64,000 bases of DNA. It comes from a virus. Location of the stretch: positions 133,793 to 197,792 of IMG/VR virus record IMGVR_UViG_3300032401_000001; one strand, written 5' to 3'. This document shows positions 24,740 to 54,180 of the stretch, one piece after another (position 1 is the stretch's first letter; the number at the start of each line of letters is the position of its first letter). The notes beneath the pieces were generated by a model. The model was not told the DNA's origin and did no database searches. It saw nothing but the letters and a program-made list of their open reading frames with translations. The position numbers and the translations under genes were made by a program.

Positions 24740-25657
24740 CTACGCGCCGGGGAGCGCGCCGACCTGGAACGCGATCGTGTTGCCGATGCCGATGCCCGGG
24801 GCCGCGTACGACCAGAACTCGATGACGTCGGCTTCCTGCTTGATGTACAGCGTGGCGTCCTGCAGCAGGAAGAAGTTCCCCAGGAAGTTCTCCGGCGCGA
24901 AGACGTAGAACTTCTTCGGGTTGAGGATGTCCGACTTCATCGTCGAGACGACCGGCATGCCCCAGAGCTTCTCTTCGGCCTCGATGCCCTGGTCGTAGTG
25001 GCGCGACGCGATGTCGTCGCCGACCATGGTCGCCGGCAGGTCGAGGGACTCGTAGTAGAGCTGCTTGGTCATCAGGATCTTGCCGACCGGCTGCCGCCGC
25101 GCGAGCATCGCCTGGAAGCAGGTGCGGAAGGCGGTGCTGTTGAAGGCGGGGGCCGCGGTCAGCTGGACCGCCGCGTTCAGCGCGACCAGGGCGTCGATCG
25201 TCTCGACGAACTTCTTGTCCTCCTGGTCCGCCATATCCTTCACCGAGTTGTCGGAGAGGATCTTGCGGATGTCGTTCTGGTACGTCATCAGCTCCCACTT
25301 GTTCTTGGTGAACCGCTGGCTCTCCGTCTTGCCGAACTTCACGGCGTAGCGGGGGCCGCGGAACCAGGTGCGGGGGCCGGCGCCCTGGAAGGTCACGAAG
25401 GTGGCCACGGAATCGGGCTCCTTCTCGACGATCTTCTTGGGCTGGTCCGTGTTCTCGTCACGGTCGATCTCGTCGTCCGCGAGGAGAATCGGGTTGATGA
25501 TCTCGCGGGCGAAGGACTCCTGACGGACCTTCGTGCGGATGAAGGCCGACCCCTCATCCTGTGCTTCCTTGACCCGGCCCTCTTCGAGCTTCCGGACGAA
25601 GTTCGAGTTGATGAGCTGGGCCGCGACCTCTTTGGTCTCGGTCATGTAAGCGGGCAT
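24740..25657 (-). CDS. Major capsid protein (HK97-fold, inferred)
   Basis: 305 aa; extreme codon bias; follows protease, scaffold and decoration genes; WGMPVVST and FLGNFF..QD...YI motifs. Confidence 0.8.
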   Translation of the reverse strand: MPAYMTETKEVAAQLINSNFVRKLEEGRVKEAQDEGSAFIRTKVRQESFAREIINPILLADDEIDRDENTDQPKKIVEKEPDSVATFVTFQGAGPRTWFRGPRYAVKFGKTESQRFTKNKWELMTYQNDIRKILSDNSVKDMADQEDKKFVETIDALVALNAAVQLTAAPAFNSTAFRTCFQAMLARRQPVGKILMTKQLYYESLDLPATMVGDDIASRHYDQGIEAEEKLWGMPVVSTMKSDILNPKKFYVFAPENFLGNFFLLQDATLYIKQEADVIEFWSYAAPGIGIGNTIAFQVGALPGA

Positions 25658-27785: not shown

Positions 27786-28445
27786 CTAGCGCCGCCCCTG
27801 CGCGGCTTGCTGCCGCAGGACGTCGTTGATGGTCACCGCGCCGGCCTTGTAGCAGTCGGCGGCCAGCTTGTGGACCTCGGTCATGGTCTCGTTGTAGCCG
27901 CGCGCGAAGTCGTCCTGCGCTTGCTTCTCGAGCCCTTCCCACTGACGCTGGTAGCCGAGGGAGTAGGCCTCCTTCACCAGCTCGGGGTTCGCCTCGGCGA
28001 ACTTGACGAACGCGGGGTCTTCCGCGGCGGTCTTGATCTGCTCGACGGCCTGGTCGACGTACTGAGGCTGCGCAGCGGCGGCGGCGTGCGCGGCGGCGGT
28101 CTTCACCTGGGGCGGCGCGACCTGGAGCGCGGCGGCTTCGTACTCCGCGAACTTCGCCATGAAGCCGTCGCAGATGGCCGCGCCGTAGACCTCCGACAGC
28201 TTGATGAGGCGCTCGTGCTCGGCGTTGCTGAGGTCTTCGGCGATCTTCAGCAGGTCACCGACCGGCGCGTTGGCGGGCGCCACGGCGGACGCCGTCTTCT
28301 CTTGGGTCATGACCGTGCGCAACACGTCGCGCAGAGCTTCGGGTGCCGTGCCCGTACCGTTCGTGCCGGCGGCGGCGGTCTTCACGCCGGACGACGACGT
28401 CTGCGTGCTCTGGTCGAGACGGTGCATGATCTGTGCGAGTTCCAT
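27786..28445 (-). CDS. Scaffolding protein (start MELAQ)
   Basis: Helical; lies between protease and MCP; about nine or ten K-x-[AS] motifs; SD GGAGAGG. Confidence 0.7.
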   Translation of the reverse strand: MELAQIMHRLDQSTQTSSSGVKTAAAGTNGTGTAPEALRDVLRTVMTQEKTASAVAPANAPVGDLLKIAEDLSNAEHERLIKLSEVYGAAICDGFMAKFAEYEAAALQVAPPQVKTAAAHAAAAAQPQYVDQAVEQIKTAAEDPAFVKFAEANPELVKEAYSLGYQRQWEGLEKQAQDDFARGYNETMTEVHKLAADCYKAGAVTINDVLRQQAAQGRR

Positions 28446-28470
28446 CGTGGCCCTCTCCGTTCGCGGCATC

Positions 28471-28484
28471 CCAATGATAGGACG
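28471..28484 (-). promoter_or_regulatory. Putative late promoter CGTCCTATCATTGG
   Basis: Identical 14-mer also at 38897-38910; both lie upstream of head genes. Confidence 0.65.
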
Positions 28485-28508
28485 CCTGTTCCCGTAAAAC
28501 AAGCCGTG

Positions 28509-37473: not shown

Positions 37474-38847
37474 CTACGCCGTGTGCCGGATGGCGCGGAT
37501 GCGGGAGAGCAGGTCGGAGCCTTCCTTCTTCTCCTCTTCCTTCTCCTTCTTCTCGTGCTCCTCGTGCTTCTCGTCCTTCTTGTCGCCGTTGTCGCCGTTC
37601 TTCTTGGCGTCGATCACGGCTTGAAGGGCGGGGGGCAGCTCGCCGGCCTGCTTCTGGTTGGACCGGGTACGATCCTGGCGGCCGGAGTTGCCCTGGTAGC
37701 GCCGCCGGCTGGAGACCGACGCGTGCTTCTCGGCGATCGCGAAGGCCTGGTCGTTCGTGGCCCCGGCTTCCTTGGCGATCACGCCAAGGTACTCGGTCCG
37801 CTCCACGTCGTTCATGCCGATCATGCGCCGCACATGGGCGATCTTGTCCTCGTCGGCGAGGGTCTTGGGCAGGAAGGCTGCGACCTCTTCGGCGGTCTTC
37901 TTGAAGAGCGTCAGGAAGGGGTCGGTCTCGCTGGTCTTGGAGTTCTCGACGATCGAGTTGGCGCTGCTGGGCGGCAGGGCGCCGGGCGGCGACTCGGCGG
38001 GCGCGTTCGGATGGGCTTGCTCGACGCCGACGTTGGCGCCGGTCGGCACCGTCAGGTCGGTCTCGCCCATGCCGGGACGGCCGAGGTGCGCGTAGCCCTC
38101 GGGCCGATTCCGCGCTTCCATCTGGGTCTCGGCGGCCGGCGCTTCGGCCATCGTGTTGCCCTTGTCGCCACCTTCGATGGTCGAGCCTTCGGCCTGCTTC
38201 TGCAGGGCGACGCGCTGGATGATCTCGCGCAGGCTGCCCATCTTCGATTGCTGGATGACGCTGTTGGAGCCGCTCGGGCTCTCCTTCGGGGCGGCGGGCT
38301 GGGGCTGCTCGTTGCCGATGATGCCCGTGCCGCGCCCGGCACCCGAGGCGGTGCCGCCGACGCCGGAGACGCCCATGTTGGCGTACTGCTCGGGCCGGTT
38401 CTTGTTCTCCATCTGGGCTTCGGCCTGGGCGGTGCCCGTCGGCGAGTTGCCCTTGTCGCCACCTTCGATGGTCGAACCCTCGGCGTGCTTGACCTCTTCC
38501 GCGGCCTTCATCATGCAGGCGTAGGCCTGGGTGCCGGCGCGTGTGTCGAGGTCCTGTGCCGCGGAGGTCTTGAGGGCGGCTTCCTCGGGCATCGGTGGGG
38601 CACCCTCGGGGGCCAGACCTTCGCCCTGCGTCTCGGACACCAGCTTGGTGGCCGCGTCGACGAGCGTGGCTGCGACGTCGGCGGCGGTCTCCGGGGACAC
38701 CGGTTCACCGGCGGGTTCGGCGGGCAGCTGGTCACCGACGGCATCGGCGATCTCGTCAGCGGCCTCCTTGACGGGGTAGCGGATGAGCCCCAGACGCACG
38801 AGCTCGTCGTTGACTCCTCGGACGTATGCGCGCTTGAACAGTGACAT
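37474..38847 (-). CDS. Repetitive internal head polyprotein (start MSLFKRAY)
   Basis: 97-aa duplication; more than ten K-x-[ASG] motifs; charged C-terminus; SD GGAGGAG. Confidence 0.7.
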   Translation of the reverse strand: MSLFKRAYVRGVNDELVRLGLIRYPVKEAADEIADAVGDQLPAEPAGEPVSPETAADVAATLVDAATKLVSETQGEGLAPEGAPPMPEEAALKTSAAQDLDTRAGTQAYACMMKAAEEVKHAEGSTIEGGDKGNSPTGTAQAEAQMENKNRPEQYANMGVSGVGGTASGAGRGTGIIGNEQPQPAAPKESPSGSNSVIQQSKMGSLREIIQRVALQKQAEGSTIEGGDKGNTMAEAPAAETQMEARNRPEGYAHLGRPGMGETDLTVPTGANVGVEQAHPNAPAESPPGALPPSSANSIVENSKTSETDPFLTLFKKTAEEVAAFLPKTLADEDKIAHVRRMIGMNDVERTEYLGVIAKEAGATNDQAFAIAEKHASVSSRRRYQGNSGRQDRTRSNQKQAGELPPALQAVIDAKKNGDNGDKKDEKHEEHEKKEKEEEKKEGSDLLSRIRAIRHTA

Positions 38848-38896
38848 CGTTCTCTCCTCCACGGCGGGCCGCAGCGGTTGCTTGGCGAAAGGCTGT

Positions 38897-38952: not shown

Positions 38953-40767
38953 TCAGTAGCGTTCGGGAGGCCCGGTGCCGAACGACTCGCCCATGACGAG
39001 CGCGGGAACGGGGTGCGTACCGTGCAGCTCAGCCGTTTCACCGAAGGCGGCACCCTCGAGAATGGAGTCTTTGAGGTTGCGATGGGCCAGCCGGGCTAGC
39101 CAGTCTGGCCGCAGCAACGGGGCGCGGCTGATGGGCTTCATGAGGGGTTCGTGCAACGGAATGCGCGGGGCGATGGGCACCGTTTTGATGCCGACGCGGC
39201 GCAGGTCCAAGGCTACCGCGGGGGTCACACGCGTGCCGGCGGTGTAGTGGAGCACGTTGTTGCCAAGGGTCTCGCCCAGGGCGTCGGTCACCGACATCAC
39301 CTTGGTGTGCTCAGCGACCAGGTTGCGGAACCGGTTGTAGTCGATGACGTCGCCGCGCAGGAGCCCGAGTTGTTCCGCGTCTCGGTCCATGATCTTGACG
39401 TAGTTCAGATCGGTCTTCGCCAGCAGCTCGAGGTGGCGGCGGTCCAGGTCGAGACCGTGTCGTTTGTAGATGCCTTGCAGCTGATCGACGAGGTACTGGC
39501 GGCCTACCCCTAGTCCTTTATGACGTACGACATCGTCGGGACGGGGGATGCCATCGGAGAGCGCGTCGCCGGCTTCGATCTTGTCACCTCGACGCACGGT
39601 CACATCTAGGATCGGCGGTACGTAGTGCTGTTCTTGATCGACCGTGACGTAGTGACCACCCTGTGGTGCTGCGGCGACTGCCGTCACGGTGCCAGGCTGT
39701 TCTGAGAGCACGGCGCGGTTGAAGAAGCTCTGCGGAATCTCAGTGAGCTGCTTGAGGCCCGACAGGCCACTCAGCACAACTTTCCGTGAGGCGGTGGTAC
39801 GGGCGGCGTGTTTCGCGTTGAGTGCCATCTGGGTGAGGGGTTCACCCATGGCGTGCGCCGCGATCATGCCGACGTTGTCGCCGATGCGTGCGTTCTGGCC
39901 GCGGTTGTTCAAGCCGTAGCAGCGCTGGCAGACACCGTGCGGGGCTTCACAGGTCATCGGTGAACGCAGCACTACCGTCTTACTATGGAGTCGACTCGCC
40001 AGTTGACCCGTGAGCAACGTGCCGGCGGGGATACCTTCACTGGACTTGGCGAGATAACGGTCTCGGGCTTGCGGGTCATCGGCGAGCATCGCCAGGCCGT
40101 TGGTGGTGCCGCAGTCCGGCACCGTGATGAGCTGGTCACCCATGTTGCCGATGAGCAGCTTGCTGATTTCGCCCGGTGCGGAAACGGAGGTATTCGATTC
40201 AACGGCGTTGCGGCGAGCTTCACCCAAGGCGATCCAGGCGTCGATGGGTTTGAGCCCCTCGGCGTAGCTCTTGCTGATGATCCACGGTACGGTGCGCCCG
40301 CGGTCATCGGTAACTGCCACCGGTGACGTCACGGTGCGCATGACCTGGGGCATGCTGCCGCGAGCACCACTGCGGACCATCATCGCGGCCTGGCCGGGGT
40401 GATGCTTGGTGATTTCGATGATCTTGGGTTGCAGGTCTTCGATGAGCTTGATGCGGGCCTGGAGATCGTGGGTGCGCTTCACCTGCGCCAGCACAGGTTC
40501 GAGCAGCGGGTCACGCACGGCGTATTCGGGTTCGATGTCGTCTAACCCGACGGTGACGCCTTCGTCGGTAGCGACGGCATCCCCGATACGCTTGATGTCG
40601 GAGATGGCCTGCACATAGCGTGGGGCGTCGTTACGCGCCAGATCTGACATCAACGCATTGAGCTCGTGCCGCGCCAGTGGTTGAGTGACGTGATGCGACG
40701 CGGGCAGGGCTTCGTTCAACAGCAGTCGACCGATGGTGGTCGTCGCTGGTTTGCGCTTGGTCGGCAT
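38953..40767 (-). CDS. rpoC: Phage RNA polymerase beta' subunit, C-terminal half
   Basis: TTIGR; SGARGS; DCGT and TCEAPHGVCQRCYG Zn site; trigger loop GEPLTQMALNAKH; DRRHLELL; C-terminal G.SFGTG. Confidence 0.95.
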   Translation of the reverse strand: MPTKRKPATTTIGRLLLNEALPASHHVTQPLARHELNALMSDLARNDAPRYVQAISDIKRIGDAVATDEGVTVGLDDIEPEYAVRDPLLEPVLAQVKRTHDLQARIKLIEDLQPKIIEITKHHPGQAAMMVRSGARGSMPQVMRTVTSPVAVTDDRGRTVPWIISKSYAEGLKPIDAWIALGEARRNAVESNTSVSAPGEISKLLIGNMGDQLITVPDCGTTNGLAMLADDPQARDRYLAKSSEGIPAGTLLTGQLASRLHSKTVVLRSPMTCEAPHGVCQRCYGLNNRGQNARIGDNVGMIAAHAMGEPLTQMALNAKHAARTTASRKVVLSGLSGLKQLTEIPQSFFNRAVLSEQPGTVTAVAAAPQGGHYVTVDQEQHYVPPILDVTVRRGDKIEAGDALSDGIPRPDDVVRHKGLGVGRQYLVDQLQGIYKRHGLDLDRRHLELLAKTDLNYVKIMDRDAEQLGLLRGDVIDYNRFRNLVAEHTKVMSVTDALGETLGNNVLHYTAGTRVTPAVALDLRRVGIKTVPIAPRIPLHEPLMKPISRAPLLRPDWLARLAHRNLKDSILEGAAFGETAELHGTHPVPALVMGESFGTGPPERY

Positions 40768-40776
40768 CGGAGAAGA

Positions 40777-41148
40777 TCAACCGCGAGGATTGGCAGGTAC
40801 CATCAGGCCACCCGAGGAACGCCCCTCTTCGACGTGCGTCGATCCACCCCAGGTCGTGAGTCGGTCGAGGTTGTTGGTGTAGGCGTAGTTGGCGTTGTCG
40901 GGGTTACTCCTCCCCTTGATCCCTTCGTCATCCATGTCGCGCAGCAGGCGCGCAAAGCGTTCGGCGCCGATGTTCATGCTCTTCTCGGGAAAGGGCGTGC
41001 CGTGCTGATCACCACCTTCGTTTGGCGGCATCGGGGCGGCGGTCTTGCGCGCCTGGCGCCGTGCCAGCGCGTAGGCGATGTCGTCGCTCATGAGCCCCAA
41101 AGCTTTCAGGGCTTCACCGGCACCGCGACTGAAGAACTCGTCACCCAT
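40777..41148 (-). CDS. Internal head protein with targeting leader
   Basis: FFSRGAGEALKALGL...RKTAA. Confidence 0.6.
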   Translation of the reverse strand: MGDEFFSRGAGEALKALGLMSDDIAYALARRQARKTAAPMPPNEGGDQHGTPFPEKSMNIGAERFARLLRDMDDEGIKGRSNPDNANYAYTNNLDRLTTWGGSTHVEEGRSSGGLMVPANPRG

Positions 41149-41159
41149 GGTAGCTCCGT

Positions 41160-41831
41160 TCAGCGGCCGCTGGTGCCTTCACGCTGGGCACGCGCCAGCA
41201 GCTTGGCGCGCTCCCCGTTGCTGCCGATGACGTCTTCGCTGCCGACGCGACTGAGATGGAGCACCGCGTCGGCGAGGCGCTTCGCCTGTTCTTCCTGGTA
41301 CTGCTTGCCGTAGCCGAGTGAATCGGCGAACTCCATCAATCCCTTGACGACCTGCTTGCTCTTCTCGGCACCAGGTGTGGCTTGACCGTCACCGTGCAGG
41401 ATGCGACGTTCGGCTTCTTCTTCGGCGGCGGCGACAAGTTGCTTGGCCTTGTCGGTGAGCAGCTTCTCGACTTCGGCGGGGACGTCGAGATTGTACTTCG
41501 CTTCGAGCAGCTTGATGAGCTTGCCGAGAAGCACGGTGACGAACGCGGCCAGAAGGGTGCCGATGGCCGTGAGTACCGGCGAGAGCAGCGGCATCCACCA
41601 CTGCTGCACGTTCGCAGCGGCCTTCACGACGGGGGTCGCGGGTTGCGTGGCGGCGATGATCGGCTGCGTGGCGGGCGCCGCTACGGCGATCAGCGGCGGT
41701 ACGACCATGAGCAGGAGCGCCAGGACGAGGAATGCCCCCAGCACGCGGATGCGCCAGGTCAGATGGTGAATCTCGTCATTCCGCATCTGGTCGAGGACGT
41801 TGCGCATCTTGAGCCACGGACGAATCGACAT
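41160..41831 (-). CDS. Holin-like membrane protein (LL-H-type pattern)
   Basis: Two hydrophobic segments, then A..LV.AAEEE.....G.EK...V motif. Confidence 0.5.
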   Translation of the reverse strand: MSIRPWLKMRNVLDQMRNDEIHHLTWRIRVLGAFLVLALLLMVVPPLIAVAAPATQPIIAATQPATPVVKAAANVQQWWMPLLSPVLTAIGTLLAAFVTVLLGKLIKLLEAKYNLDVPAEVEKLLTDKAKQLVAAAEEEAERRILHGDGQATPGAEKSKQVVKGLMEFADSLGYGKQYQEEQAKRLADAVLHLSRVGSEDVIGSNGERAKLLARAQREGTSGR

Positions 41832-41842
41832 GAGGGCTCCTG

Positions 41843-42298
41843 TCAGCGAAGGTTTACCGCGTAAAGCGCGGTGACGATACCCCTAGTATAAGGTATGGAC
41901 GCCTGCTTCACGATGTTGAGATCGGGGTCGGTCTGGTACATCACGGGCTGGTCATGTGGCTGTGGCTGGTCGTCGTACGGCAGCTTCGCGTAGCGCTGCG
42001 CGGAGATTGGCGGCAGCGCATCGCCGCGGAGCTTGGTGCGGATGAAGTCGTCAGCCGCGGCGCTGGCCTTTTCTTGCTTCGCTTCTGCTTCCATCGCCTT
42101 GAGGCGGCGATAGTAGTCGGGAATCTCGGTCAGGTGATCGATGGCGATGTCCGTCTGCTTCGCTGGATCGTCCGTGTGCTCATGTTCGATCTTCTGACCG
42201 GCGGCAACTTCGGCGGCAGAGAAGTCGGACGGCTTCTTGCCCTCTTTTTCGGCGTTGCCGCCGGGGATGCCGCCGGGGAGTGCGTAGGCCATGATCAA
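41843..42298 (-). CDS. DUF5661-like small virion protein
   Basis: G..IE.EHT.D....IA.DHL.E.PDYY..L..ME pattern; EKAS and VKQA motifs; C-terminal YTRGIVTALYAVNL. Confidence 0.6.
   Translation of the reverse strand: MIMAYALPGGIPGGNAEKEGKKPSDFSAAEVAAGQKIEHEHTDDPAKQTDIAIDHLTEIPDYYRRLKAMEAEAKQEKASAAADDFIRTKLRGDALPPISAQRYAKLPYDDQPQPHDQPVMYQTDPDLNIVKQASIPYTRGIVTALYAVNLR
41852..41866. promoter_or_regulatory. Palindrome GTTTAC-CGC-GTAAAG (copy 6)
   Basis: Between the TATACT box (41885) and the start of the second holin-like gene. Confidence 0.8.
41885..41892 (-). promoter_or_regulatory. Putative late -10 element CTTATACT
   Basis: 53 nt upstream of the ATG at 41831. Confidence 0.55.
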
Positions 42299-42504
42299 CC
42301 TCGAGGCACAAGCCCAGTGTCGAGTAGCGCTTGCGCCACGCCGTGCCCGAAGAACCGGCTCTCCTTCTTGCGACCGACGCGCTCGGGGAGCTTCTTGCCC
42401 TTGGGCGTGGTGTCCTCCCAGTGCTTGACGGTGGTCTTCGAGATCTCACCACGGTCAGCCATGGCGTAGAACTTGCCGCGTTGCGCTTGGCTCTTGAAGG
42501 GCAT
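42295..42504 (-). CDS. Small basic MPFKSxAQR-family phage protein
   Basis: MPFKSQAQR.KFYAM..RGEIS...V..W...TP..KKLPERV, then FFGHGVAQALLDTGL. Confidence 0.65.
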   Translation of the reverse strand: MPFKSQAQRGKFYAMADRGEISKTTVKHWEDTTPKGKKLPERVGRKKESRFFGHGVAQALLDTGLVPRG

Positions 42505-42505
42505 G

Positions 42506-44401
42506 TCACTGCTCCTTACGCGTCGGCTGCTTTCGTTCCATCACGCTGACTTTGCCGACACGTGGATCATTGAGAAGGGCGGCGTCATGAAAGCCGAGGC
42601 TTTCGTAGAATCGTTTCGCACCGCGGTTCTTCGAGATACGTTGAAGGGACGTCGCGGGTGTTGGGAGACTCTTCAGCAGCTGTGTGGCAACACCTTGACG
42701 CCGGTGTGGTGGCGACACATAAAGGCCAGTTAAGCGCCCGGTTCCAGGTTCGGCTGCGACGAGTCCACGAAACTTCCCTTCTGGCGTGACATCAAGTTTG
42801 ACCTGATGTGGTGTTCCGAACTCTGACGTACGTAGATCGATGTCGCGGATGTGGAATCGCGCAAGATCTTCTGCGGTGGCGTCGCGGATGTGTTGCGACG
42901 TTTTCTCTTCTGACGGCAGCAGGCCCAGATTCTTGTCGAGGTGCCAGTCCTTGAAGGCCGGCGCACGCAGTGCTCCGGGCTTCTTCGGATGCTCCTTGTC
43001 GTGGTAGAGCCCAAGGGCCTGCACCTTGGCGACGCGGCCGATGTACTTCGCCGGGTTCGACAGCATGTCGCGCTTGAGCGCATGGTCGAGTCCGGTGCCG
43101 ACGTTGCCGACGATCTTGCCCTCGGGGGTCCAGGAGTAGCGGAAGCCGCCGGCCAACTCGGTACGCGCCCCCGTCTCTGGGTAGACCTCACGCACGTAAA
43201 CGTCGTGGTCTGGTCGGAACTTGGCCTTGGTGGGCGGGCCACCGGCGAGGGGCCAGAGCACGACGCCTTCGCTGGTGATGGGTTCCTGCCCGGTGCGAAT
43301 CCGGTTCAGCAGGTCGATCTTCTCTTTCGGCGTCCGCGCCATCGGCGGGAGTTCGAGGAACGGTAGCGACTTGTGGACCTCCCCAAGGATGGACAGTTTC
43401 TTCTCGTAGGGGAGTGACTCCAGGTCTTTCCCGTGGCGCCGCGCGACATCGAAGATGATCGCTCGCAGCGGCGTGTGAGTTTGCAGATCGCGGCTCTTCC
43501 ATACGCCGGAGTTGAGGACGGCGCCCGTATCTTGAGTTCCGCGAGCTCTTCCGGTGTGAGGGTCGGCGGCGACGAGTTCCCCCCGGAGCACCAGTTGGTC
43601 GAGATGATCAGGCACGCGGGTCGTGTATCCCGGCAGGAATCGGTGGCTGTGCTCGATGACCCCGGTGTCGCGTTCGGTAGGACGGTAACTGAAAACCCGT
43701 ACGGGATGACCCGCATCAAGAACGAATGTGTTGTGTGCGCCGTCGACCTTTGCGGCCATGAGTTGCTGATCATTGGTGACGTCGACCTTGTCGGGGGTCG
43801 TCTCCTTGTAGTCGGGCTTGCTCTGGGGAATGTCGGGGCGCTTCTCTTTGGTGATGGTCACGTTCTGCAGCAGCCACTTGTCACCGTGGGTGCGGTGCAG
43901 GACGTACTCGTTGATGTCCTTCCCCTGATAAACGTTGAAGCGTACCTTGTCGCGGTTCGCTTCGACTACGTCGACCGGTTCCTTGAGTGCCATACGGACC
44001 TTGCCGGCGCCGTATCCTGAACCGATCGTCTGCTCACCCTTCTCGCCGAAGTGGAGTGCGTAGTCGGGGGTGTGCGTGAACGTTTGGACGGCGAGCAGGC
44101 GCTCGCCGGGTTCTGGTAGACGAGCTTTCGGGATCGCCCACGAGTGAGCTTTCCCCGCGTCAGGATCAACCAGACGCAGGTCGAAGTGCGCGCGGCCGCC
44201 TGAGCGCGCAGTTTCGTGGTGCTGTACGGCGAGCGTCCAGCGGTTGAGCGTATCGGCGTTGATCGTCGGGAGTGGGGAGACCGGCTTACCCTTGGGGATG
44301 CCCGGGGCGAACTCACCGGGCAGGGCTGCCTGGGCGGTCTTCAGTAGACCGAGGTCCGCCAGCGCGGCGAGGCGACCTCCGATGGTGTAGACCGCGGCCA
44401 C
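42506..44401 (-). CDS. ligD: LigD-type 3'-phosphoesterase + ATP-dependent DNA ligase (NTase/OB) + GNAT fusion
   Basis: QHH...HFDLRL...SWAIPK...H.PDY (PE); AKVDG, LRGEL, IFDV, SEGVV, KAK, VGTG (ligase); LYVSPPHRRQGVATQLL...A.RFYESLGF (GNAT). Confidence 0.9.
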   Translation of the reverse strand: MAAVYTIGGRLAALADLGLLKTAQAALPGEFAPGIPKGKPVSPLPTINADTLNRWTLAVQHHETARSGGRAHFDLRLVDPDAGKAHSWAIPKARLPEPGERLLAVQTFTHTPDYALHFGEKGEQTIGSGYGAGKVRMALKEPVDVVEANRDKVRFNVYQGKDINEYVLHRTHGDKWLLQNVTITKEKRPDIPQSKPDYKETTPDKVDVTNDQQLMAAKVDGAHNTFVLDAGHPVRVFSYRPTERDTGVIEHSHRFLPGYTTRVPDHLDQLVLRGELVAADPHTGRARGTQDTGAVLNSGVWKSRDLQTHTPLRAIIFDVARRHGKDLESLPYEKKLSILGEVHKSLPFLELPPMARTPKEKIDLLNRIRTGQEPITSEGVVLWPLAGGPPTKAKFRPDHDVYVREVYPETGARTELAGGFRYSWTPEGKIVGNVGTGLDHALKRDMLSNPAKYIGRVAKVQALGLYHDKEHPKKPGALRAPAFKDWHLDKNLGLLPSEEKTSQHIRDATAEDLARFHIRDIDLRTSEFGTPHQVKLDVTPEGKFRGLVAAEPGTGRLTGLYVSPPHRRQGVATQLLKSLPTPATSLQRISKNRGAKRFYESLGFHDAALLNDPRVGKVSVMERKQPTRKEQ

Positions 44402-44413
44402 ACAGTGCCTCGC

Positions 44414-44938
44414 CTATCCCTTGCGACCCTTCGCGGTAGTGTGGCCGATGCGCTTGGCGGTGGTCATTTTCTTCTTGTGGGACATCTTGCGCTTCAGCGC
44501 CTGGAAGCGGCCACCGACACCTACTGGAGTACGTGACGCGGATTCACGTGCGCTGCTGGGCCGTCCGTTTCGACCACGAGGGCCACCCAGCTTTTCGAGG
44601 GTGCGCCGTACGATGCCATCGGTGTCGACTTCGAAACCGGCGAACTTCGGTGGTGGCGCCGTGGGGTTGTCGTACTCGGCGTCCTGCATGTCGCGGGCAA
44701 AGTCCGCCGCGGCGCGGGTACGTGCGCCGAGCTTCGTGCTCGAGACGGGGGCCATCGGTGAACCCATCGGGGGCGCAGGGGCGGCCGTGTTCGTCGGGGG
44801 CTGGGCGGCTATGGCCGAAGGCGTCGGTCCGCCCGTCGTGATCGCGGGCGTGGCGCTCGTCTTGACCTGTACGCCGAAGTGCTGCAGTGCCGCCTCAGCA
44901 CCGATGCGAAAGGCCAAGTCGAGATGCCGGTTGCTCAT
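44414..44938 (-). CDS. Internal head protein with leader and very basic C-terminus
   Basis: HLDLAFRIGAEAALQHFGVQVKTSA; G.GGRFQALKRK tail. Confidence 0.65.
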   Translation of the reverse strand: MSNRHLDLAFRIGAEAALQHFGVQVKTSATPAITTGGPTPSAIAAQPPTNTAAPAPPMGSPMAPVSSTKLGARTRAAADFARDMQDAEYDNPTAPPPKFAGFEVDTDGIVRRTLEKLGGPRGRNGRPSSARESASRTPVGVGGRFQALKRKMSHKKKMTTAKRIGHTTAKGRKG

Positions 44939-45024
44939 GCTGACTCCTCAGACGACACGCGCCGCGCCAGGATCCCGGAGGAACGCCAAATTGTCCGGCA
45001 TGTTGGTGCCGGGTTCGGGCGGAA

Positions 45025-45255
45025 CTACGGCGGTCCGCCCGGGGAACGCCCGGGGAGGCGGGTACCCGGGAGATCGGTGGGTAGCTTCGGCGGCGTTGGC
45101 CGCGGCACGATTCCGGGTCCTGGGCGACCGGGCTTAACGTCGGGCGTGGGGATGGGCGGTCGATCTTCCCCCACGGCCACCTTGTTGAGCTCCGTCTCGA
45201 AGTCGTACTGCGCCTGTGCGGCGCCGATCTTGAATGCGGTATCCAGGTGCGACAT
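45025..45255 (-). CDS. Small Pro-rich internal protein with leader
   Basis: MSHLDTAFKIGAAQAQYDFETELNKVA. Confidence 0.65.
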   Translation of the reverse strand: MSHLDTAFKIGAAQAQYDFETELNKVAVGEDRPPIPTPDVKPGRPGPGIVPRPTPPKLPTDLPGTRLPGRSPGGPP

Positions 45256-45282
45256 GGTCTCTCCTTGTAGTTGGGTGAAACG

Positions 45283-45852
45283 CTACGCCCAACTGGGTCT
45301 CTTGAGTCCGGCGGGTGCCGCGGTGCCAGCGGCGGGACGTAGCCCGGCGGGCGCGGCCGGCTTGGCCCCACTGAAGAACTGCGACATGCCCGAGAAGTTC
45401 GGGGTGCCACCAGCAGCGGGAGCTGCGGCGGGAGCCCGCGCAACGGCCGTACCACCACCGCCACCACCAGCGCCGGGGTAGTTGATGGGACCAGCGGCGA
45501 CGGCGGGACTGGCCTGCGGTGCACCACGTCCGGTGGGCGTGTTCGCGACTTGGCCACGCTGACCCATGCCCATGCTGGCGAGAGCGTTGGACGGTTGCGT
45601 GGTGCCGGGACGCTGGACGCCGGCGACGGCCGTTGAGGTTGGGGGAGTTCCGGCGCTTCTGCCACCGAGGCCACCGCCCATGGGCGAAGGACCACTCCGC
45701 GTCAGTGCGGGTTGGCCGATGGTCTGCCCCGGGTCTTGCCCGCGCGATGACGGCACCAGGTCGCCGAACTGGCCGGACTTGTGCAGCTCGGCCTGGAAGT
45801 CGTGTTGCGCCTGGGCAGCGCCCAGCTTGAACGCGGTATCGAGATGGCTCAC
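45283..45852 (-). CDS. Low-complexity internal protein with leader (GTG start)
   Basis: SHLDTAFKLGAAQAQHDFQAELHKSG; SD GGAGG. Confidence 0.65.
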   Translation of the reverse strand: MSHLDTAFKLGAAQAQHDFQAELHKSGQFGDLVPSSRGQDPGQTIGQPALTRSGPSPMGGGLGGRSAGTPPTSTAVAGVQRPGTTQPSNALASMGMGQRGQVANTPTGRGAPQASPAVAAGPINYPGAGGGGGGTAVARAPAAAPAAGGTPNFSGMSQFFSGAKPAAPAGLRPAAGTAAPAGLKRPSWA

Positions 45853-45875
45853 GGAGACCTCCCTGTGCAACCGCA

Positions 45876-45883
45876 AGTATAGG
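45876..45883 (-). promoter_or_regulatory. Putative late -10 element CCTATACT
   Basis: Intergenic, between the RNAP stop and the GTG at 45852. Confidence 0.6.
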
Positions 45884-45901: not shown

Positions 45902-48900
45902 TCAACCGATCTCTATCTCGGCGTTGAGCGCGATCTCACCACGACGATACGCGGCGAGCGCTTCGGCCTTGGTCTTGAAGCGGTACTTCTTGCCGTCCTT
46001 GGCGTTGCTGGCCAGATGCACGCCGACGATGGCTTCGTGCTGCGGGAAGACCAGCAGGTCGCTCTTGGTCTTGTCGCCGAAGAGCAGGTTGGACAGCAGC
46101 ATCGCTTTCACGTCTTTGACGGCGCCGGGCATGACCGGGACGTGGACGGTCAGCGTGTCGCCGTCGTAGTCGAGGTTGAGGCCCTTCTCGATGAACGGGT
46201 TGACGCGTAGCGTCTTGCCGGGCACGGGTACCGGGTAGGCGCCGATCATGCCGTAGCGGTGCAGCGTGGGGGCACGATTGACGATGAGGGGACGCTCCTG
46301 GGCTTCACGCAGCAGCGCTTCACGGGCCACCGGCATGTGGTCTTCGAGCGCCTTCTGTGCATCGACCGCGTGGTAGCCGTTCTGCACCAAGCGCCGGATG
46401 ACGTGTGGACCGTACATCGTCCACATCATGTCTTCGGGAATGCCGACCTCGTCCATGTTGAGGTTGAGGTCGGGGACCGCGGTACCGCGACCACTGACGT
46501 CCTGCGGGCGGTAAAGGACCTTGCCGTGGAAGAAGCCGCCTTTGGGGCTGCCTTGGCCGGCGATCGTCGTGATGAATCCCTTGGCGCCGCGACCCTGCAG
46601 CTGTGGGCTCATCGGGTCACCGAGACCGAAGACCGCCTTGGTGGCGTCGTAGAGATGCAGCCGCGCCTTGGCCACTTCTTCGGGTGGCAGCGAGTGCTTG
46701 GCTGCGGCCAGGTTCTCGTTGGCGAGCATCGCGTCGCGGTACAGGTAATTCGCGTCGGAGACTAGCAGGTCCTTGCGTCCGTGTGACGCCGGTAGGATCG
46801 GGCGCACCACCGGGGGCACGACGCCCAGCTTCGAGATGATGTAGGCCTGGTCCGGTGAGAGCTTCTCCCGTTGCAGCGCCAGGACGTTCTTCAGCTGTTT
46901 CAGGGCACCATCGAGGCGGGCGCCAGTGGCATCACGCACTTCACCACGCAGTTCGCGCTCGCGCTGATCGAGGTTGATGGTTGCCAGACGGCGGCGGACA
47001 CCGGCGCCGCCTTCACGCTCCAGCAAGTCGCGGAACTGTGCGACGGTGAGTCCCAGCAGGCGGCGTACCGGTTCTTCGAACGTCGGGTTCACCAACGGTT
47101 CATGCAGGTCGACGTGTGACCAGCGGGTGCCGTTGGTGCCGCCGGTGACCACCGGATCGAAGAGTCCGCCCTTCTCCGGGGAGAGGTCTTTCTCCTTCAC
47201 CATGAGCGGTCGGGCGATGGCGCCGGCGGAGAGCTTCTTCACGTCGGCATCGGTCAACGGACCGAGCGTCATCTGTTCGTTGCCCTTGTCGACCTTGATG
47301 CCGGCGCCGCGCAGCATCTCCAGGAACTTTTCACTGGTGAACGAAGTGCGGGCCGGCGGCAACGGCAGGCCCAGCTGGTAGGCGCGCCAGAACTCGTCGT
47401 TGCGTGACGACTTGAGGGTCATGGATTCGCGCAGCACGTTGCGGGCGTTGTGCGCCAGCAGGGCGTTGATCTCCATGCGTCCGAGGGCTTTCGCGCCGGT
47501 CGCACCGCCTTTGGCGGGCTGCAGGTTGGCGTCATAATCTTCGACGCCGCGCGCGCTGTAGTTCGTCTCGGTGCTCTTGAAGAGCTTGTAGATGTACTGC
47601 GGTCCGACCATCACACCCTTGCCATCGGGTCCTTTGATGGTCTTCCCGGTCATCGGGTTGTCGAGGATTTCCTTGTCGGTGAGGCCGTGTTCTTTGAGGA
47701 GTCCACGTGCCCACTTCACGTTGTTCTTGCCGCTGAACGACTCGATGACGATGGGCTTGCCAGTCTTCTCGGCGACTTTGGCGACTGCAGTTTCCAGGAT
47801 CTGTGCGGGATTGATGCGGCCATGCACTCCGGTGGGCGGCATGAGCAAGTCCAACGGACGCCCATCCAGGGTGTGCGGCATCTGGGCGATTGGCAGTACC
47901 TGAGAGACGACGCCTTTGCCGCCGTAGCGGTTCGAGATCTTGTCGCCAATCGCCGCGGGTTCACTGGTGCGGACCGTGAGCAGGATGCGCGACGGGGTCG
48001 CGACGACGTCGACGATTTCACCGGGACAGCGGTGTTCCCACGTCAACGCGATTTCACGGAAGGGCGTGTTCAACGTGCGGTGGAGCTTGCCGAGCATGCG
48101 CTGTTCGGCGGTGGGCAGCGCCTTGTGCAACCCGAGGATGAGTGGGTCGCCGGGCTGCAGCGTCTCCCCGGAACGAGCGACGCCGCGGCTGTCGAGGTGA
48201 GCGTACTGGACGGCGGTCCAGCGGCTGCCGAACATGGCGCGGTGCTTGTCGCGCTCGAGCACCGTGTCCAGGTCGAGCTGGAGCACTTCCTTGTACATAT
48301 GCTCGCTGGTCAACTTCTCGGCGGCTGCTTGTGAGATGACCACGGCGTCGTTGGTGTTGGCGCCGTAGTGGGGCAAATAGCCCACGCGGAGATTCGTGCC
48401 CAACGCTAGCCGGCCGTCCATGGTGACGTTCGAGTCGGTGAGGAGTTGTTCGGCGTCAACTTCGTCGCCGGCCTTCACCGTGACGTTGTTGTGCAGGAAG
48501 GTCTTGGACGACAGCGGGAAGTGGTCGTCGTAAGGGATCTTGATGATCGGCGCGGCGGCGGTCTTCTCACCGTCTTCGGCGAGATAGACATGCTCGACGG
48601 GCGCCATCTGCGGCCACTCGCTCGCCGCTTCGGCCTTCTTCTTGCTCTCGGGTCGCAGGTAGATGTAGTCCTGATCGACCTTGGTGATGGTGCCGGCCAC
48701 CGGGGCGTGCGGCACAATGAAGCGCGCGATCTCCTGCTCCATCGTACGGCGGGGATTGAACGACGCGACCTGCACCAACGGAGCTTCACGGTGCACCAGC
48801 GGAAGGGCCTGGCCGACGTGCTTGGCGCCCATCAGTAGACGGAAACCTTCGACGCTCTCCGGCATCGGGATGGTGTTGCTCGACAGCGAGAACATAAAGG

Positions 48901-50347
48901 ATGGATGGGGCAGATCGTAGTCGATCTCGCCGCGGCCGACCGAAACCGGCTGCCCGGCGCGCAGGGCCGAGACTCCGCGTTGCTGGTCACGTTGCCACGG
49001 CAACGCTACCGTGGCGTTCTCGACGTCCTGAACGGCGATGTCTTGGAGTTTGCCGGTTTTGGCGTTGCGCAACAACGTGTGCATCCGGCCCTGCTCGTCA
49101 CGCTTGAGCCAGAGCGCGGCGCGCAGGTCGACGCCGGCATGGAAGCTCTCGGGGGTACGCGCCGGGTCGATGAAACCGAAGTGCGTGTGGTGGAGGCTGC
49201 GCGCCTCGTTGGGGATAGCACGTTCGGATTCGATGCCGCCTTCGCCTAGCGTCGTGACCTTGGCTGCACTGTCGAGAATCTCGACGGGATTGATCTGCGT
49301 CGGGATCGAAGACAACGTGCTGTTGGTGATGAAGCTGCGGAGGGTTCGCGTAAACGGTGAGGGCGGGACGATGCGATCGAGGTCGAGGTTGCCCGAAGAC
49401 GCCTTCATACGCGCCTTCTTGGCCAGGTTGCGCCCCTCCAGCATGATGCGTTCCCGCACGAAGTCGTCGGCGCTCAGCAGTTGTTGGAAGGCGAGGCTGT
49501 CGCGGTCGTCGGTGTCGACGCCTTCACGGTGAACGTCGAGCAGCTTCTTCGAAGCTTTAACTAGGGCCGCCGGGGTCACGTGGGTGAAAGGTGTCCCCAG
49601 GGTTCGTGACGTGACATCGGGGTCCAGCACGGTGTTGTTGTAGCTCTCGTGGATGGCGTCGGCCTTGGCTTCCTGGGTATGGTGGGTGCGGCGGTACTCC
49701 GGCACCAGGCGCTCGTAGAGCTTATCCATCGCTTTGTCGGCCTTCGCCGGCGTACCAGAGAACATGCTGCGATTCTGGGCGACGACCCCGCTGCCCCAGG
49801 CGCGGTTGAGCTCGGTTTCGGGGACGCCGAGCTTGCGCAGGATGGGGTAGAGCGGGATGTTGGTCGTCCCGTATTGCATGTAGAGGTGACCCTTGGCGGG
49901 GTCCATGCTGAGACGGAAGTTGTCACCGCGGCCCAGGTTGAAGGCGGCTTCGAGTTCTTCGTTGCCCCGCACGCGGGTGTACACGCCGGGGCGGACCCGG
50001 CGTTGGTTCGCTACCGAGTACTCGTTGCCATCCACGATGAACGTGTGTCGGGGCGTGAACCACGGCAGCTGGGCCAACGTGATGTCGTCCTTGCGCTGGA
50101 CGGTCTTTCCCGCAGCGTCTTTGAGGACCAGGGATCCCTTGAGGGGTTCCTGCAGCGTGTGTCCCTGCAGCAGCGCGTCTTTCTGTTCGCGGGAGGAGTA
50201 TTCCTTCGAGACTACGTGTAGGTCTTCGACTTCGATGCGGTGATCCCGGAGAGCGAGCGGAAAGACGCGACGGACACCGTCGGTCGCTTTTTCGTGGATC
50301 TGGGTGCGACGTGTGGCGGCATCGATGAGAATTGGGGTCAGAGCCAT
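45902..50347 (-). CDS. rpoBC: Phage RNA polymerase: beta subunit fused to the N-terminal half of beta'
   Basis: beta motifs FIVDGNEY, LGEGG, TPES, GDKISNRYGGKGVVS, GRINPAQILE, GRMEINAL; then beta' motifs GLFDP, VPP..RP, GRG, NRAPTLHR, NLDYDGD. Confidence 0.97.
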   Translation of the reverse strand: MALTPILIDAATRRTQIHEKATDGVRRVFPLALRDHRIEVEDLHVVSKEYSSREQKDALLQGHTLQEPLKGSLVLKDAAGKTVQRKDDITLAQLPWFTPRHTFIVDGNEYSVANQRRVRPGVYTRVRGNEELEAAFNLGRGDNFRLSMDPAKGHLYMQYGTTNIPLYPILRKLGVPETELNRAWGSGVVAQNRSMFSGTPAKADKAMDKLYERLVPEYRRTHHTQEAKADAIHESYNNTVLDPDVTSRTLGTPFTHVTPAALVKASKKLLDVHREGVDTDDRDSLAFQQLLSADDFVRERIMLEGRNLAKKARMKASSGNLDLDRIVPPSPFTRTLRSFITNSTLSSIPTQINPVEILDSAAKVTTLGEGGIESERAIPNEARSLHHTHFGFIDPARTPESFHAGVDLRAALWLKRDEQGRMHTLLRNAKTGKLQDIAVQDVENATVALPWQRDQQRGVSALRAGQPVSVGRGEIDYDLPHPSFMFSLSSNTIPMPESVEGFRLLMGAKHVGQALPLVHREAPLVQVASFNPRRTMEQEIARFIVPHAPVAGTITKVDQDYIYLRPESKKKAEAASEWPQMAPVEHVYLAEDGEKTAAAPIIKIPYDDHFPLSSKTFLHNNVTVKAGDEVDAEQLLTDSNVTMDGRLALGTNLRVGYLPHYGANTNDAVVISQAAAEKLTSEHMYKEVLQLDLDTVLERDKHRAMFGSRWTAVQYAHLDSRGVARSGETLQPGDPLILGLHKALPTAEQRMLGKLHRTLNTPFREIALTWEHRCPGEIVDVVATPSRILLTVRTSEPAAIGDKISNRYGGKGVVSQVLPIAQMPHTLDGRPLDLLMPPTGVHGRINPAQILETAVAKVAEKTGKPIVIESFSGKNNVKWARGLLKEHGLTDKEILDNPMTGKTIKGPDGKGVMVGPQYIYKLFKSTETNYSARGVEDYDANLQPAKGGATGAKALGRMEINALLAHNARNVLRESMTLKSSRNDEFWRAYQLGLPLPPARTSFTSEKFLEMLRGAGIKVDKGNEQMTLGPLTDADVKKLSAGAIARPLMVKEKDLSPEKGGLFDPVVTGGTNGTRWSHVDLHEPLVNPTFEEPVRRLLGLTVAQFRDLLEREGGAGVRRRLATINLDQRERELRGEVRDATGARLDGALKQLKNVLALQREKLSPDQAYIISKLGVVPPVVRPILPASHGRKDLLVSDANYLYRDAMLANENLAAAKHSLPPEEVAKARLHLYDATKAVFGLGDPMSPQLQGRGAKGFITTIAGQGSPKGGFFHGKVLYRPQDVSGRGTAVPDLNLNMDEVGIPEDMMWTMYGPHVIRRLVQNGYHAVDAQKALEDHMPVAREALLREAQERPLIVNRAPTLHRYGMIGAYPVPVPGKTLRVNPFIEKGLNLDYDGDTLTVHVPVMPGAVKDVKAMLLSNLLFGDKTKSDLLVFPQHEAIVGVHLASNAKDGKKYRFKTKAEALAAYRRGEIALNAEIEIG

Positions 50348-51993: not shown

Positions 51994-53721
51994 TCAGCCG
52001 CCGCGTGCTTGAGTCTTGCCCTGCTGGGCGGCGGCCAATTGCCGTTCTTCCAACCGCTGGACCACGACGGAGTAGAGGACGAAGTCTTCGACCTGGAGAG
52101 CATGCAGCTGGCTCTTGCGGGTACCCGGATCGAGTCCCAGGAGTTGTTCCACCAGCTGGTCGGCCTGGGCGATGACTTGCTGCTGATCGTAGTTCATGCC
52201 GGGACCACTGCGCAGCGCTTCTTGCTGGGTCTTCTGTGCCAGGGATTGCTGCAGCTTCTGCACCTTGAGTTGCAGCGTCTGCTGGAAGCGCACCTCGTCG
52301 AGGGCTTCCTCCATGCGCCGTTCGCGTTCCTTGTCGAGGTCGAAGTCGTTCATCTCGGCGATGGTGGTGTTCGAGATGATCTGCTGGCCGCCCTGGTTGA
52401 GCTGCATGATGAGCTGCTTCTGCTGCACGTCGTCGATGAGCTTGAACTCCTGCAGCTCGAGGTCGACCTTGCCCCAGCCGAGGATGCGACAGCAGCGGTC
52501 GGTGATCCACTGCGCCAGTTCGTCCAGCGCACCGGTATAGGTGAGGAGCTGGTTCTCGAGCATGCGCAGCGTGATGGCCGAGCCCGTGAAGCTCATGCCG
52601 CCGTAGATGAACTCGCGCGGGATGCCCATGGCGGCGATGATGTTGTCTTCGACCTGCTGCACTTCGCCAAGCGTGAGCAAGGCACGGCCATCACCACCCA
52701 TCTGGGTGAGCTGAACGGGCACTGGCGCGAACATGATGGTGAGCGGGTCACGGCGCCAACGACGGATGCCGCCCTTGAACTGCTCGAACATGTTGGCCAG
52801 CGAGATGGTCATGATGGGGTCGGCGCCGCTGGTCGCCTGGGCCGGGGACACGACGCGGAACGGCACCAGGTGATCGAGGGCGATGGCTTCGTTGGCCTTG
52901 CGCAGCACCGCGGCGTAGAAGAAGAGCTTGATGGCGCTGGTGAGGGGCGGGAAACCCCACTGCTGGGTGATGCCGGCCGGCGGCGGCACCTTCATGTGGA
53001 AGATGTAGTCGTCGGCGAAGCGGAACATCTTATTGTCGCGGGCGGCCTTGATGTAGGCCAACGGCAGCGAGTTGAGCAGCAGCTTGTTGCCCTTGCGGAT
53101 GCGGTCCTTGATCTCGGCGGGAACCGAGTGGTAGTAGACGGCCTCGCCGCTGACTGGGTTGAAGTCGACGTCCATCTGCTTCGGGTCCCAGCGCACCAGG
53201 TTGATGCGGTTGGGATCGGTCAGGCGGCGGTCGATGACGCGGCCCTCGACGGTGTTCTTGCACTGACGGCAGGTGTACTCGAAGCCGAGCTTCATGAAGC
53301 GGAAGCGGTAGTTGACGTGCTCGATGCCCACCATCTTGCCGCACTCGGGGCACTTGAGGAACCGCGCGAAGGGCTGGTACACGGAAACGAAGGCGTTGCC
53401 GTAGATCCAGTAGTCGCGCCCGACGACCATCAGGAATTCCTTCAGGCGCAGCGTCTGTTCGACGAGGTGCTTGACGCGGTCCTTCAGGTTCTCGTTGGTG
53501 GTGTCGTAGGTGAAGTCGGTGATGGGGTACTCGCAGAACTTCTTGAGGCCGGCGAAGATCTGAGCGGAGTTGTAGTAGAGGTACTCCATCCAGATGAAGA
53601 GGTCGCGCAACCGTCGGGGCACGAAGCCCGTCAGGAAGTCGAACATTGGGTTGGGATGAGTTGTATTGTGCCTGAAGAGCGCTTCGACGTCACTCGAGTA
53701 GGGATCGCCAGCGAAGCTCAT
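51994..53721 (-). CDS. Portal protein with Zn-ribbon insertion (start MSFAGD)
   Basis: D..IYGNAFV, WG.PP...A, GIPREF..G motifs; CPEC...CRQC insert. Confidence 0.8.
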   Translation of the reverse strand: MSFAGDPYSSDVEALFRHNTTHPNPMFDFLTGFVPRRLRDLFIWMEYLYYNSAQIFAGLKKFCEYPITDFTYDTTNENLKDRVKHLVEQTLRLKEFLMVVGRDYWIYGNAFVSVYQPFARFLKCPECGKMVGIEHVNYRFRFMKLGFEYTCRQCKNTVEGRVIDRRLTDPNRINLVRWDPKQMDVDFNPVSGEAVYYHSVPAEIKDRIRKGNKLLLNSLPLAYIKAARDNKMFRFADDYIFHMKVPPPAGITQQWGFPPLTSAIKLFFYAAVLRKANEAIALDHLVPFRVVSPAQATSGADPIMTISLANMFEQFKGGIRRWRRDPLTIMFAPVPVQLTQMGGDGRALLTLGEVQQVEDNIIAAMGIPREFIYGGMSFTGSAITLRMLENQLLTYTGALDELAQWITDRCCRILGWGKVDLELQEFKLIDDVQQKQLIMQLNQGGQQIISNTTIAEMNDFDLDKERERRMEEALDEVRFQQTLQLKVQKLQQSLAQKTQQEALRSGPGMNYDQQQVIAQADQLVEQLLGLDPGTRKSQLHALQVEDFVLYSVVVQRLEERQLAAAQQGKTQARGG

Positions 53722-53727
53722 GCTCGG

Positions 53728-53734
53728 AGGATAA
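53728..53734 (-). promoter_or_regulatory. Putative -10 TTATCCT, leaderless configuration for the portal
   Basis: 6 nt from the box to the ATG at 53721; no SD. Confidence 0.45.
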
Positions 53735-53739
53735 GCCAC

Positions 53740-54180
53740 GTGACCCAAGAGTACAACCGTGATGTCTGTTTGCTGTGCAGCGTCGCCGACGAATGTCTAC
53801 GACTACGTACGGTCGTCGACTGTATGCACTGCCCGGAGAGTTTGACTTGCGCGGGAACGCCGGTGTTCAACACCCCCAAGTGTGAAGCCCGGGCACGGGA
53901 GTGGCACACGGCGCCGCCGATGAGTACGTTGTGCATGTTGGCGTGGCAGCTGCTCGAGCATCACGACGACTTCATCCCGGTGGAACCGATCTCGATCGAC
54001 GACGGTGACAAGAGCATGATGGTGCGGTGTCCCCGCTGCAACAACATCACCGGGGGTTTCGCGCGTAACTACGACCTCCACGTCGAGAGCATCTTCCACG
54101 CCAAGCAGCACATCATGAACCAGGAGTACCGCATCTGGTGCAACTTCTGCGGGCTTGATCTCAAGCGTATCATCTCGTAG
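53740..54180 (+). CDS. Cys-rich Zn-binding hypothetical protein (start uncertain)
   Basis: 3' end of the long plus ORF: CLLC, CMHC, CPRC and CNFC motifs. Confidence 0.55.
   Translation: MTQEYNRDVCLLCSVADECLRLRTVVDCMHCPESLTCAGTPVFNTPKCEARAREWHTAPPMSTLCMLAWQLLEHHDDFIPVEPISIDDGDKSMMVRCPRCNNITGGFARNYDLHVESIFHAKQHIMNQEYRIWCNFCGLDLKRIIS

Follow-up and report, generated by a model that had tools for sequence, protein, structure and literature searches.

A helix of roughly 20 residues, usually with a K-x-A/S joint, recurs on 14 or more (up to about 19) otherwise unrelated proteins encoded by the phage represented by IMG/VR record IMGVR_UViG_3300032401_000001. The stretch analyzed here, the window, comprises positions 133,793 to 197,792 of that record and is the final 64 kb of a 197,792-bp phage genome with a GC content of ~63%. 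The shared element, which we call the tag, is built as a short amphipathic helix (aromatic-x-x-G-x-x-x-A-L-x-x-hydrophobic) followed by a glycine cap and a hydrophobic residue, and the K-x-A/S joint and a flexible linker usually come after the helix. With moderate confidence, we interpret the tag as a head-loading signal with an adjoining cut site, resembling the capsid targeting sequence (CTS) of phage T4. Among the bearers is a DNA-repair ligase fusion whose family occurs with and without the tag. Genes are named below by their lower window coordinate, and the features of the window are collected in Table 1.

The strict pattern [FY]..G...[AE]L...G[LV] has five matches among the 192 called proteins, compared with a mean of 0.03 and a maximum of 1 in 300 shuffles. 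One of the five is an 85-amino-acid (aa) protein encoded outside the window that was not part of the motif definition, and it is therefore independent of the choices made in the original prediction. In the ligase and in gene 1637 the aromatic residue lies one position further from the glycine, and the remainder fits G...AL...GLLKxA. A profile hidden Markov model (HMM) was built from the matches and refined by iteration on a set made up of this genome, G002 (a complete relative) and six related loci. In this genome the profile recovers 14 proteins at 12.7–25.9 bits, with reversed-sequence decoys reaching at most 4.4 bits, and a six-frame scan of the same set of genomes and loci gives 28 matches of at least 12 bits; every one of these is in the coding orientation, and no decoy exceeds 9.4 bits. 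The 14 strong bearers all lie within the late minus-strand virion block, and none is found among the remaining ~125 genes. The original prediction, that unrelated proteins share this helix, is thus borne out, with more bearers than it had listed. The copies it named on the ligase, 44414, 40777, 37474 and 1637 and at the C-terminus of 42295 are all significant by profile (15.0–23.1 bits). Two further proteins that it described as looser versions, 45025 and 45283, are weak by profile; yet their N-termini are homologous to the 44414 tag (blastp E 0.002–0.006 in a whole-proteome search) and they are thus degenerate copies. The C-terminal copy that it assigned to 41843 has a negative score and is a doubtful member.

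Chance similarity, or descent from a duplicated N-terminus left inert and without function, is a highly improbable source of the motif. Short helical motifs do recur by chance, and some bearers are tandem paralogues (44414, 45025 and 45283), but the excess of strict matches over the shuffled expectation and the clean gap between matches and decoys contradict this explanation. In addition, what unrelated proteins and divergent phages conserve in common is the tag alone.

Of the 14 strong matches, ten have the tag at the N-terminus, two at the C-terminus and two internally, at domain joints. The N-terminal group includes gene 1637, because its translation really begins with the GTG at 2293, in a GTGA overlap with the upstream stop codon. 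K-x-[AS] occurs within a few residues after seven of the ten N-terminal tags. The four significant internal or C-terminal tags are instead preceded by K-x-[AS] (KKES in 42295, EKRS in a 163-aa protein and KKES before the internal tag of a 290-aa protein) or, in one case, by R-x-A (LREA before the internal tag of a protein with an InPase domain); VKQA precedes the doubtful copy in 41843. Since the motif stands on the cargo side whatever the position of the tag, it is hard to explain as a mere part of a binding helix, and it fits a boundary or cut site. The 42295 tag, which ends its protein here, was ancestrally internal, since the orthologue in L001, a 93% relative [open reading frame (ORF) 7586–8446], runs on beyond the tag through QTKTA, and there the tag is flanked on both sides.

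The K-x-[AS] motif is also unevenly distributed over the proteome. In the head/cargo set it is enriched 1.67-fold (z 6.2), and EK-x-[AS] is enriched 5-fold (z 7.4); the ratio for K-x-[AS] is 0.97 in the rest of the proteome and 0.75, a depletion, in the capsid-plus-tail set. Five control patterns are flat in the same test. They include the T4-type [LI].E, which is no higher in the head/cargo set (ratio 1.13, z 1.1) than among the remaining proteins, and the phiKZ-type [AGS].E (ratio 0.92, z −1.2 in that set); neither is enriched. The sites accumulate in the scaffold-like protein, the protease, 32326 and 37474, and they fall below expectation in the capsid protein and the portal (Table 1). Several small neighbour genes of the loaded proteins are also rich in the motif. 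This distribution is what a maturation-protease code would be expected to give, and the K-x-Ala/Ser statistics point to a predicted cleavage specificity unlike that of the Glu-specific T4 and phiKZ proteases.

A candidate for the enzyme that would cut at these sites is encoded next to the scaffold-like protein. A model of the N-terminal 270 residues of this prohead protease (window 29622–30431) [38 homologues; predicted local distance difference test (pLDDT) 72] has its best structural match in T4 gp21 (5jbl_B), with a Z score of 8.9 and a root-mean-square deviation of 3.9 Å for 145/164 residues. The next unrelated fold has a Z score of 6.1, and the herpesvirus assemblins have Z scores of 4.6–5.1. 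No PDB sequence matched the protease in a phmmer search, and its family numbers at least 545 proteins. Residues H112, H124, H125 and S176 are invariant in the family, as are three Cys residues of an insert, and the protease is presumably active. The insert, an invariant Cys-x2-Cys ... Cys-x-His element at residues 186–202 within the gp21-fold domain, is probably a zinc knuckle, and we know of no such insert in T4 gp21.

The protease also has a long non-catalytic C-terminal extension that contains K-x-[AS] sites. Together with the tight coupling of the helix to the K-x-A/S joint, in which K21 and A23 of the ligase tag are nearly invariant, this extension fits a different role, in which the tag is a propeptide that brings substrates to an exosite of the prohead protease or times activation, and loading depends on other parts of each protein. 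We regard such a role as unlikely. The proteins with the heaviest K-x-A/S load (the scaffold, the protease and 32326) are untagged, and the tag is thus unnecessary for recognition of the sites.

The ligase family provides a natural experiment on the tag. From 447 homologues returned, the best 120 were examined, and the conserved start of the enzyme (EFAPGIP) was located in 93. This tag is present in 45/93, 15/93 start directly at the EFAPGIP core and the rest have other leaders. K-x-[AS] lies no more than nine residues from the core in 42 of the 45 tagged homologues, and several of the alternative leaders have the form F-A-D-E-L-x-K-I-A, likewise ending in K-x-A. In 30 close homologues, G9, A13 and G18 of the tag are conserved at 100%, L17 and K21 at 97% and A23 at 93%. 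The core of the tag matches the catalytic motifs in conservation; the positions on either side of it are variable, as is the length of the linker that comes next. The AlphaFold2 model of the ligase (71 homologues, mean pLDDT 82) shows a helix at residues 2–16, and the pLDDT is below 50 at residues 23–28, directly after K21-T-A23, where a disordered joint is predicted. From about residue 31 the enzyme is modelled with a pLDDT above 90. The comparison supports the tag as an optional, replaceable module on a conserved enzyme core. Because one ligase core can be compared in tagged form, behind other leaders and without any leader, the targeting hypothesis is directly testable, and the same natural experiment suggests a portable handle for packaging foreign proteins.

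Two of the four K-x-[AS] sites in the ligase are at domain joints, namely position 21 (the tag joint) and position 500 (EEKTS, in the ligase/GNAT linker). The ligase of the 93%-identical relative L001 (6427–7932) has no GNAT domain and ends shortly after HLDK; the GNAT domain here, behind the EEKTS linker, looks like a recent add-on after a K-x-S site. Some ligase and prohead-protease homologues contain inserted inteins/Hint domains and LAGLIDADG endonucleases and reach ~1000 aa instead of ~640. In L023 (10001–12228), whose lineage is further removed and has its RNA polymerase (RNAP) fully fused into a chain of 2100 aa, the ligase and the next gene bear a different leader. The leaders of these adjacent genes are SAFADEL...KQA and SAFFDEL.KITA, with MKTS before the second. 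The occurrence of two adjacent copies is no more than suggestive of a second leader type (F-A/F-D-E-L...K-x-A); in L024, the other contig considered, the ligase lies outside a virion module.

The tag is retained in ten related viral contigs, in which the RNAP β′-C subunit is 93–40% identical and the GC content ranges from 44 to 67%, both on orthologues and on non-orthologous neighbours. For example, the orthologues of 40777 in all of the relatives (L002, L003, L006, L009 and L010) retain it, some behind an extra N-terminal domain, and the 44414 tag is retained in L001. The slot between the two RNAP genes holds eight genes here versus two to seven in the relatives (two in L003, L006 and G002, three in L008 and about six in L002). 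Most products of this slot bear the tag or a recognizable variant; no tag is found on the predicted membrane protein 41160–41831 here or on the slot product L008 9642. Three tagged genes occupy the slot of gene 1637 in G002 (35839–34067). Tagged genes thus sit in variable loci, and the content of three slots changes between relatives while the tags stay.

A second tagged cluster, which accounts for nine of the bearers, lies outside the window. Its nine genes follow one another on the minus strand with translational coupling, at genome positions 114781–120689 (L012 1782–7689), and the six-frame scan finds the motif in 9/9. Five of the cluster proteins have glycine-zipper-like hydrophobic segments, and another property of the cluster is an InPase domain (PF18823, E 9e-37) in one protein, whose PHROG neighbours are annotated as a minor head protein and a DarB-like antirestriction protein. 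PF18823 is a characteristic domain of polyvalent proteins that are packaged in heads (PMC5512222). The nine genes look like an ejection-protein cassette. No homologue of the cluster proteins is found in G002 at E < 1e-5, though G002 has tagged genes of its own. Ligase homologues are found fused to InPase, NUDIX, C39-type peptidase, SNF2, SET or GNAT domains. The MuF domain (PF04233) has no match in the 197,792-bp genome, in a search where the controls matched, and the usual anchor of polyvalent proteins is thus absent.

The character of these proteins bears on two other roles for the tag. First, the tag could be a co-assembly helix, by which tagged proteins pack against one another or against 37474 through a small-residue face, build an internal body or ejection complex and stay in the mature virion. 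The conserved small residues (G, A and G at i, i+4 and i+9) are spaced for tight helix–helix packing, the abundant-looking acidic protein 37474 bears the same tag, many tagged proteins have glycine-zipper segments typical of oligomeric membrane assemblies, and two of the tags are internal. However, bundling leaves unexplained both the constant K-x-A/S on the cargo side and the presence of the tag as an optional extra on a soluble enzyme family, and we consider it a possible but rather doubtful explanation. Second, the tag could act after infection, either as a signal for ejection through the tail or as an anchor in the host membrane, rather than in loading. It is an amphipathic helix and several bearers resemble membrane-inserting ejection proteins, but the head-specific K-x-A/S that flanks it suggests removal before ejection, and soluble enzymes are also tagged; this role therefore has a low probability.

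Returning to head loading, we infer from these computed features the steps of docking in the head at a receptor there, cleavage and injection. Through the helix, the tagged proteins would dock either within the prohead core as it assembles or on the inner side of the shell. Once assembly is complete, cleavage at K-x-A/S by the prohead protease of gp21/assemblin fold would break down the scaffold and core and release each cargo from its tag. The freed cargo would remain in the head and could accompany the DNA and the virion RNAP into the cell.

Several observations weigh against this scheme. The two tags in the middle of proteins are not predicted by a simple N-terminal leader model, and three of the ten N-terminal tags have no K-x-A/S nearby. 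The head/cargo group for the enrichment test of K-x-[AS] was defined after the tags had been seen, and K-x-A could be part of a binding element rather than a cut site. Among cultured phages, Salmonella phage Arash has no clear tag in the 25.8 kb examined, so its virion proteome cannot test the tag, and neither megablast with the region nor tblastn with the ligase gave a match against 50,697 phage records. The original prediction had also held that the tag mimics the shell-binding helix of the scaffold, citing AYSLGY...LEKQA and FARGY...HKLA in 27786–28502 as copies. These segments score −1.0 by profile, which is at noise level, and the scaffold region of G002 has no match; the mimicry that was built on the copies is thus unsupported. 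What stands of the proposed transferable tag is a portable, optional module that is flanked by K-x-A/S in a genome that encodes a protease of the gp21/assemblin fold.

The logic of the tag matches that of the T4 CTS, of P1 DarB and of the SPN3US/phiKZ propeptides; the differences are the tag sequence, the K-x-Ala/Ser joint instead of x-Glu, the internal and C-terminal tags and the phage lineage. To our knowledge, there is no sequence resemblance between this tag and the T4 CTS. As cited in PMC9024508 and PMC10052503, the CTS is carried by the T4 internal proteins IPI–III and Alt and is removed by gp21 (Mullaney and Black 1996). The two systems have in common a short shared N-terminal peptide on unrelated proteins, variable gene slots, a protease-type site next to the peptide (a candidate site here) and a gp21-fold protease encoded in the genome. 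Unlike the CTS, the joint here is K-x-A/S and not L/I-x-E, and the tags are also internal and C-terminal. This phage further differs from T4 in its capsid protein of 305 aa and in the multisubunit RNAP of its virion, and the function of its tag is predicted from sequence. In phage P1, an N-terminal stretch of fewer than 30 residues of DarB is sufficient to direct a foreign protein into the head (PMC9024508). There the cargo consists of anti-defence enzymes, and the signal, like most of the tags here, is short and N-terminal; however, the P1 signal is not a motif common to many proteins, and P1 loading proceeds stepwise through DarA/Hdf. In SPN3US, phiKZ and 201phi2-1, the propeptides of head and ejection proteins are cut at A/S/G-x-E by a gp21-like protease (PMC10052503). 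Those propeptides are N-terminal and some are short (20–24 residues), and a virion RNAP is present as well, but they share no common sequence and are cut after Glu, whereas one conserved helix is reused here.

A further parallel is with polyvalent proteins and MuF-anchored effectors (Iyer et al. 2017, PMC5512222), enzymes that are injected together with the DNA. Their repertoire resembles the cargo here, with InPase, peptidase, NUDIX, SNF2, GNAT and ligase-type modules. Unlike those systems, there is no MuF here and most cargo is encoded as separate genes, each with its own tag, rather than as one giant chain. Herpesvirus assemblin cuts at Ala|Ser, a precedent for a small P1 residue in this fold family, and we know of no shared cargo tag in herpesviruses. 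The protease–scaffold architecture of assemblin (PMC4498786) is matched here by the protease fold, by a scaffold-like extension after the protease and by the suggested small P1 residue (Ala/Ser). Unlike that of assemblin, the cleavage specificity here is deduced from motif statistics. The cargo-loading peptides of encapsulins and the C-terminal targeting tail of the HK97 protease dock cargo inside an HK97-fold shell from either end and are not cleaved off; their consensus differs from that of the tag.

If the tag loads heads, the tagged proteins amount to a ready list of what this lineage injects along with its DNA. On that list are a ligase that heals and seals ends and is joined to an acetyltransferase, a protein with an InPase domain, glycine-zipper proteins that may insert into membranes and many proteins to which no function is assigned. 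As a loading signal, it would also supply a simple sequence criterion by which such cargo could be recognized in metagenomic data. A broader and more tentative proposal is that a clade of uncultured RNAP-packaging phages uses a two-part grammar, a helix address and a K-x-Ala/Ser cut site, at the start, middle or end of proteins. Sister lineages would swap the address and keep the K-x-A joint, and the gp21/assemblin-fold protease would cut with a small P1 residue as in herpesviruses. Such a grammar, if true, would be a natural reprogrammable protein-packaging code that links phage and herpesvirus maturation specificity.

Table 1. Features of the window in order of coordinate, with tag profile scores and counts of K-x-[AS] sites.
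Feature	Window coordinates	Strand	Description and evidence	Profile score (bits)	K-x-[AS] sites versus expected
Gene 1637	1637–2293	−	218-aa candidate cargo; N-terminal tag, then LLKQA	22.1	
Major capsid protein	24740–25657	−	305 aa; position and size match Arash gp226		1 vs 3.1
Scaffold-like protein	27786–28502	−	Adjoins protease; no tag; densest K-x-[AS] load		11 vs 2.6
Prohead protease	28509–30431	−	640 aa; phrog_18299; gp21/assemblin fold in N-terminal domain		12 vs 4.8
Gene 32326					8 vs 2.1
Gene 37474	37474–38862	−	Acidic repetitive core-like protein, 462 aa; N-terminal tag (residues 11–29), then VKEA	19.9	13 vs 6.0
β′-C RNAP gene	38953–40767		PHROG match		
Gene 40777 (candidate cargo 3)	40777–41148	−	123 aa; N-terminal tag (residues 4–21)	19.8	
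Gene 41843	41843–42298	−	DUF5661 protein (Pfam); C-terminal 15 residues tag-like; doubtful member	−3.0	
Gene 42295	42295–42504	−	69 aa; ends in tag (residues 50–67)	23.1	
Ligase (candidate cargo 1)	42506–44401	−	631 aa; LigD-type 3′-phosphoesterase + ATP-dependent DNA ligase + GNAT fusion (Pfam domains)	15.0	
Ligase tag	44333–44401	−	Residues 1–23; helix, Gly cap, LLKTA joint		
Gene 44414 (candidate cargo 2)	44414–44938	−	174 aa; N-terminal tag (residues 9–26), then VKTS	18.1	
Genes 45025 and 45283	45025–45876	−	Two paralogues, 76 and 197 aa; degenerate tag-like N-termini	4.5, 3.0	
β + β′-N RNAP fusion	45902–50347		PHROG match		
Portal (probable)	51994–53748		Late block		1 vs 2.9

Nearly all genes of the late block are on the minus strand; the block runs from about window position 50347 downward and includes a further 19 kb upstream of the window. 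Pfam and PHROGs give no match for most of the tagged proteins, the scaffold, the capsid protein or an 890-aa protein. By RNAP, the closest cultured phage is Arash, with 30% identity across the full length. The Arash RNAP subunits gp206 and gp216, which are homologous to the RNAP here, rank among the most abundant proteins of the purified virion (PMC10585845), and this supports the view that the late block encodes virion-internal proteins.

Two of the tagged genes show further variation among the relatives. In 37474 and its orthologues (L002 11850, L003 12550, L006 12448, L008 12510 and L009 12839), both ends are conserved, with the tag at the N-terminus and a basic amphipathic helix at the C-terminus, and the middle is variable. 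The protein may have a core or linker role in the prohead. In L006/G002 53740–53273 and L009 9113–9604, a small PFKSQAQR-type domain, the tag and a 40777-like body form one protein; in this genome the PFKSQAQR domain with a tag (42295) and a tag with the body (40777) are split into separate genes.

The capsid protein is 71.5% identical to its G002 orthologue. Between gene 2290–2787 and the capsid gene, ~21 kb of the window (2807–24237) has almost no counterpart in G002, where the orthologue of 2290–2787 comes nearly directly after the capsid gene, with one 154-aa gene between them.

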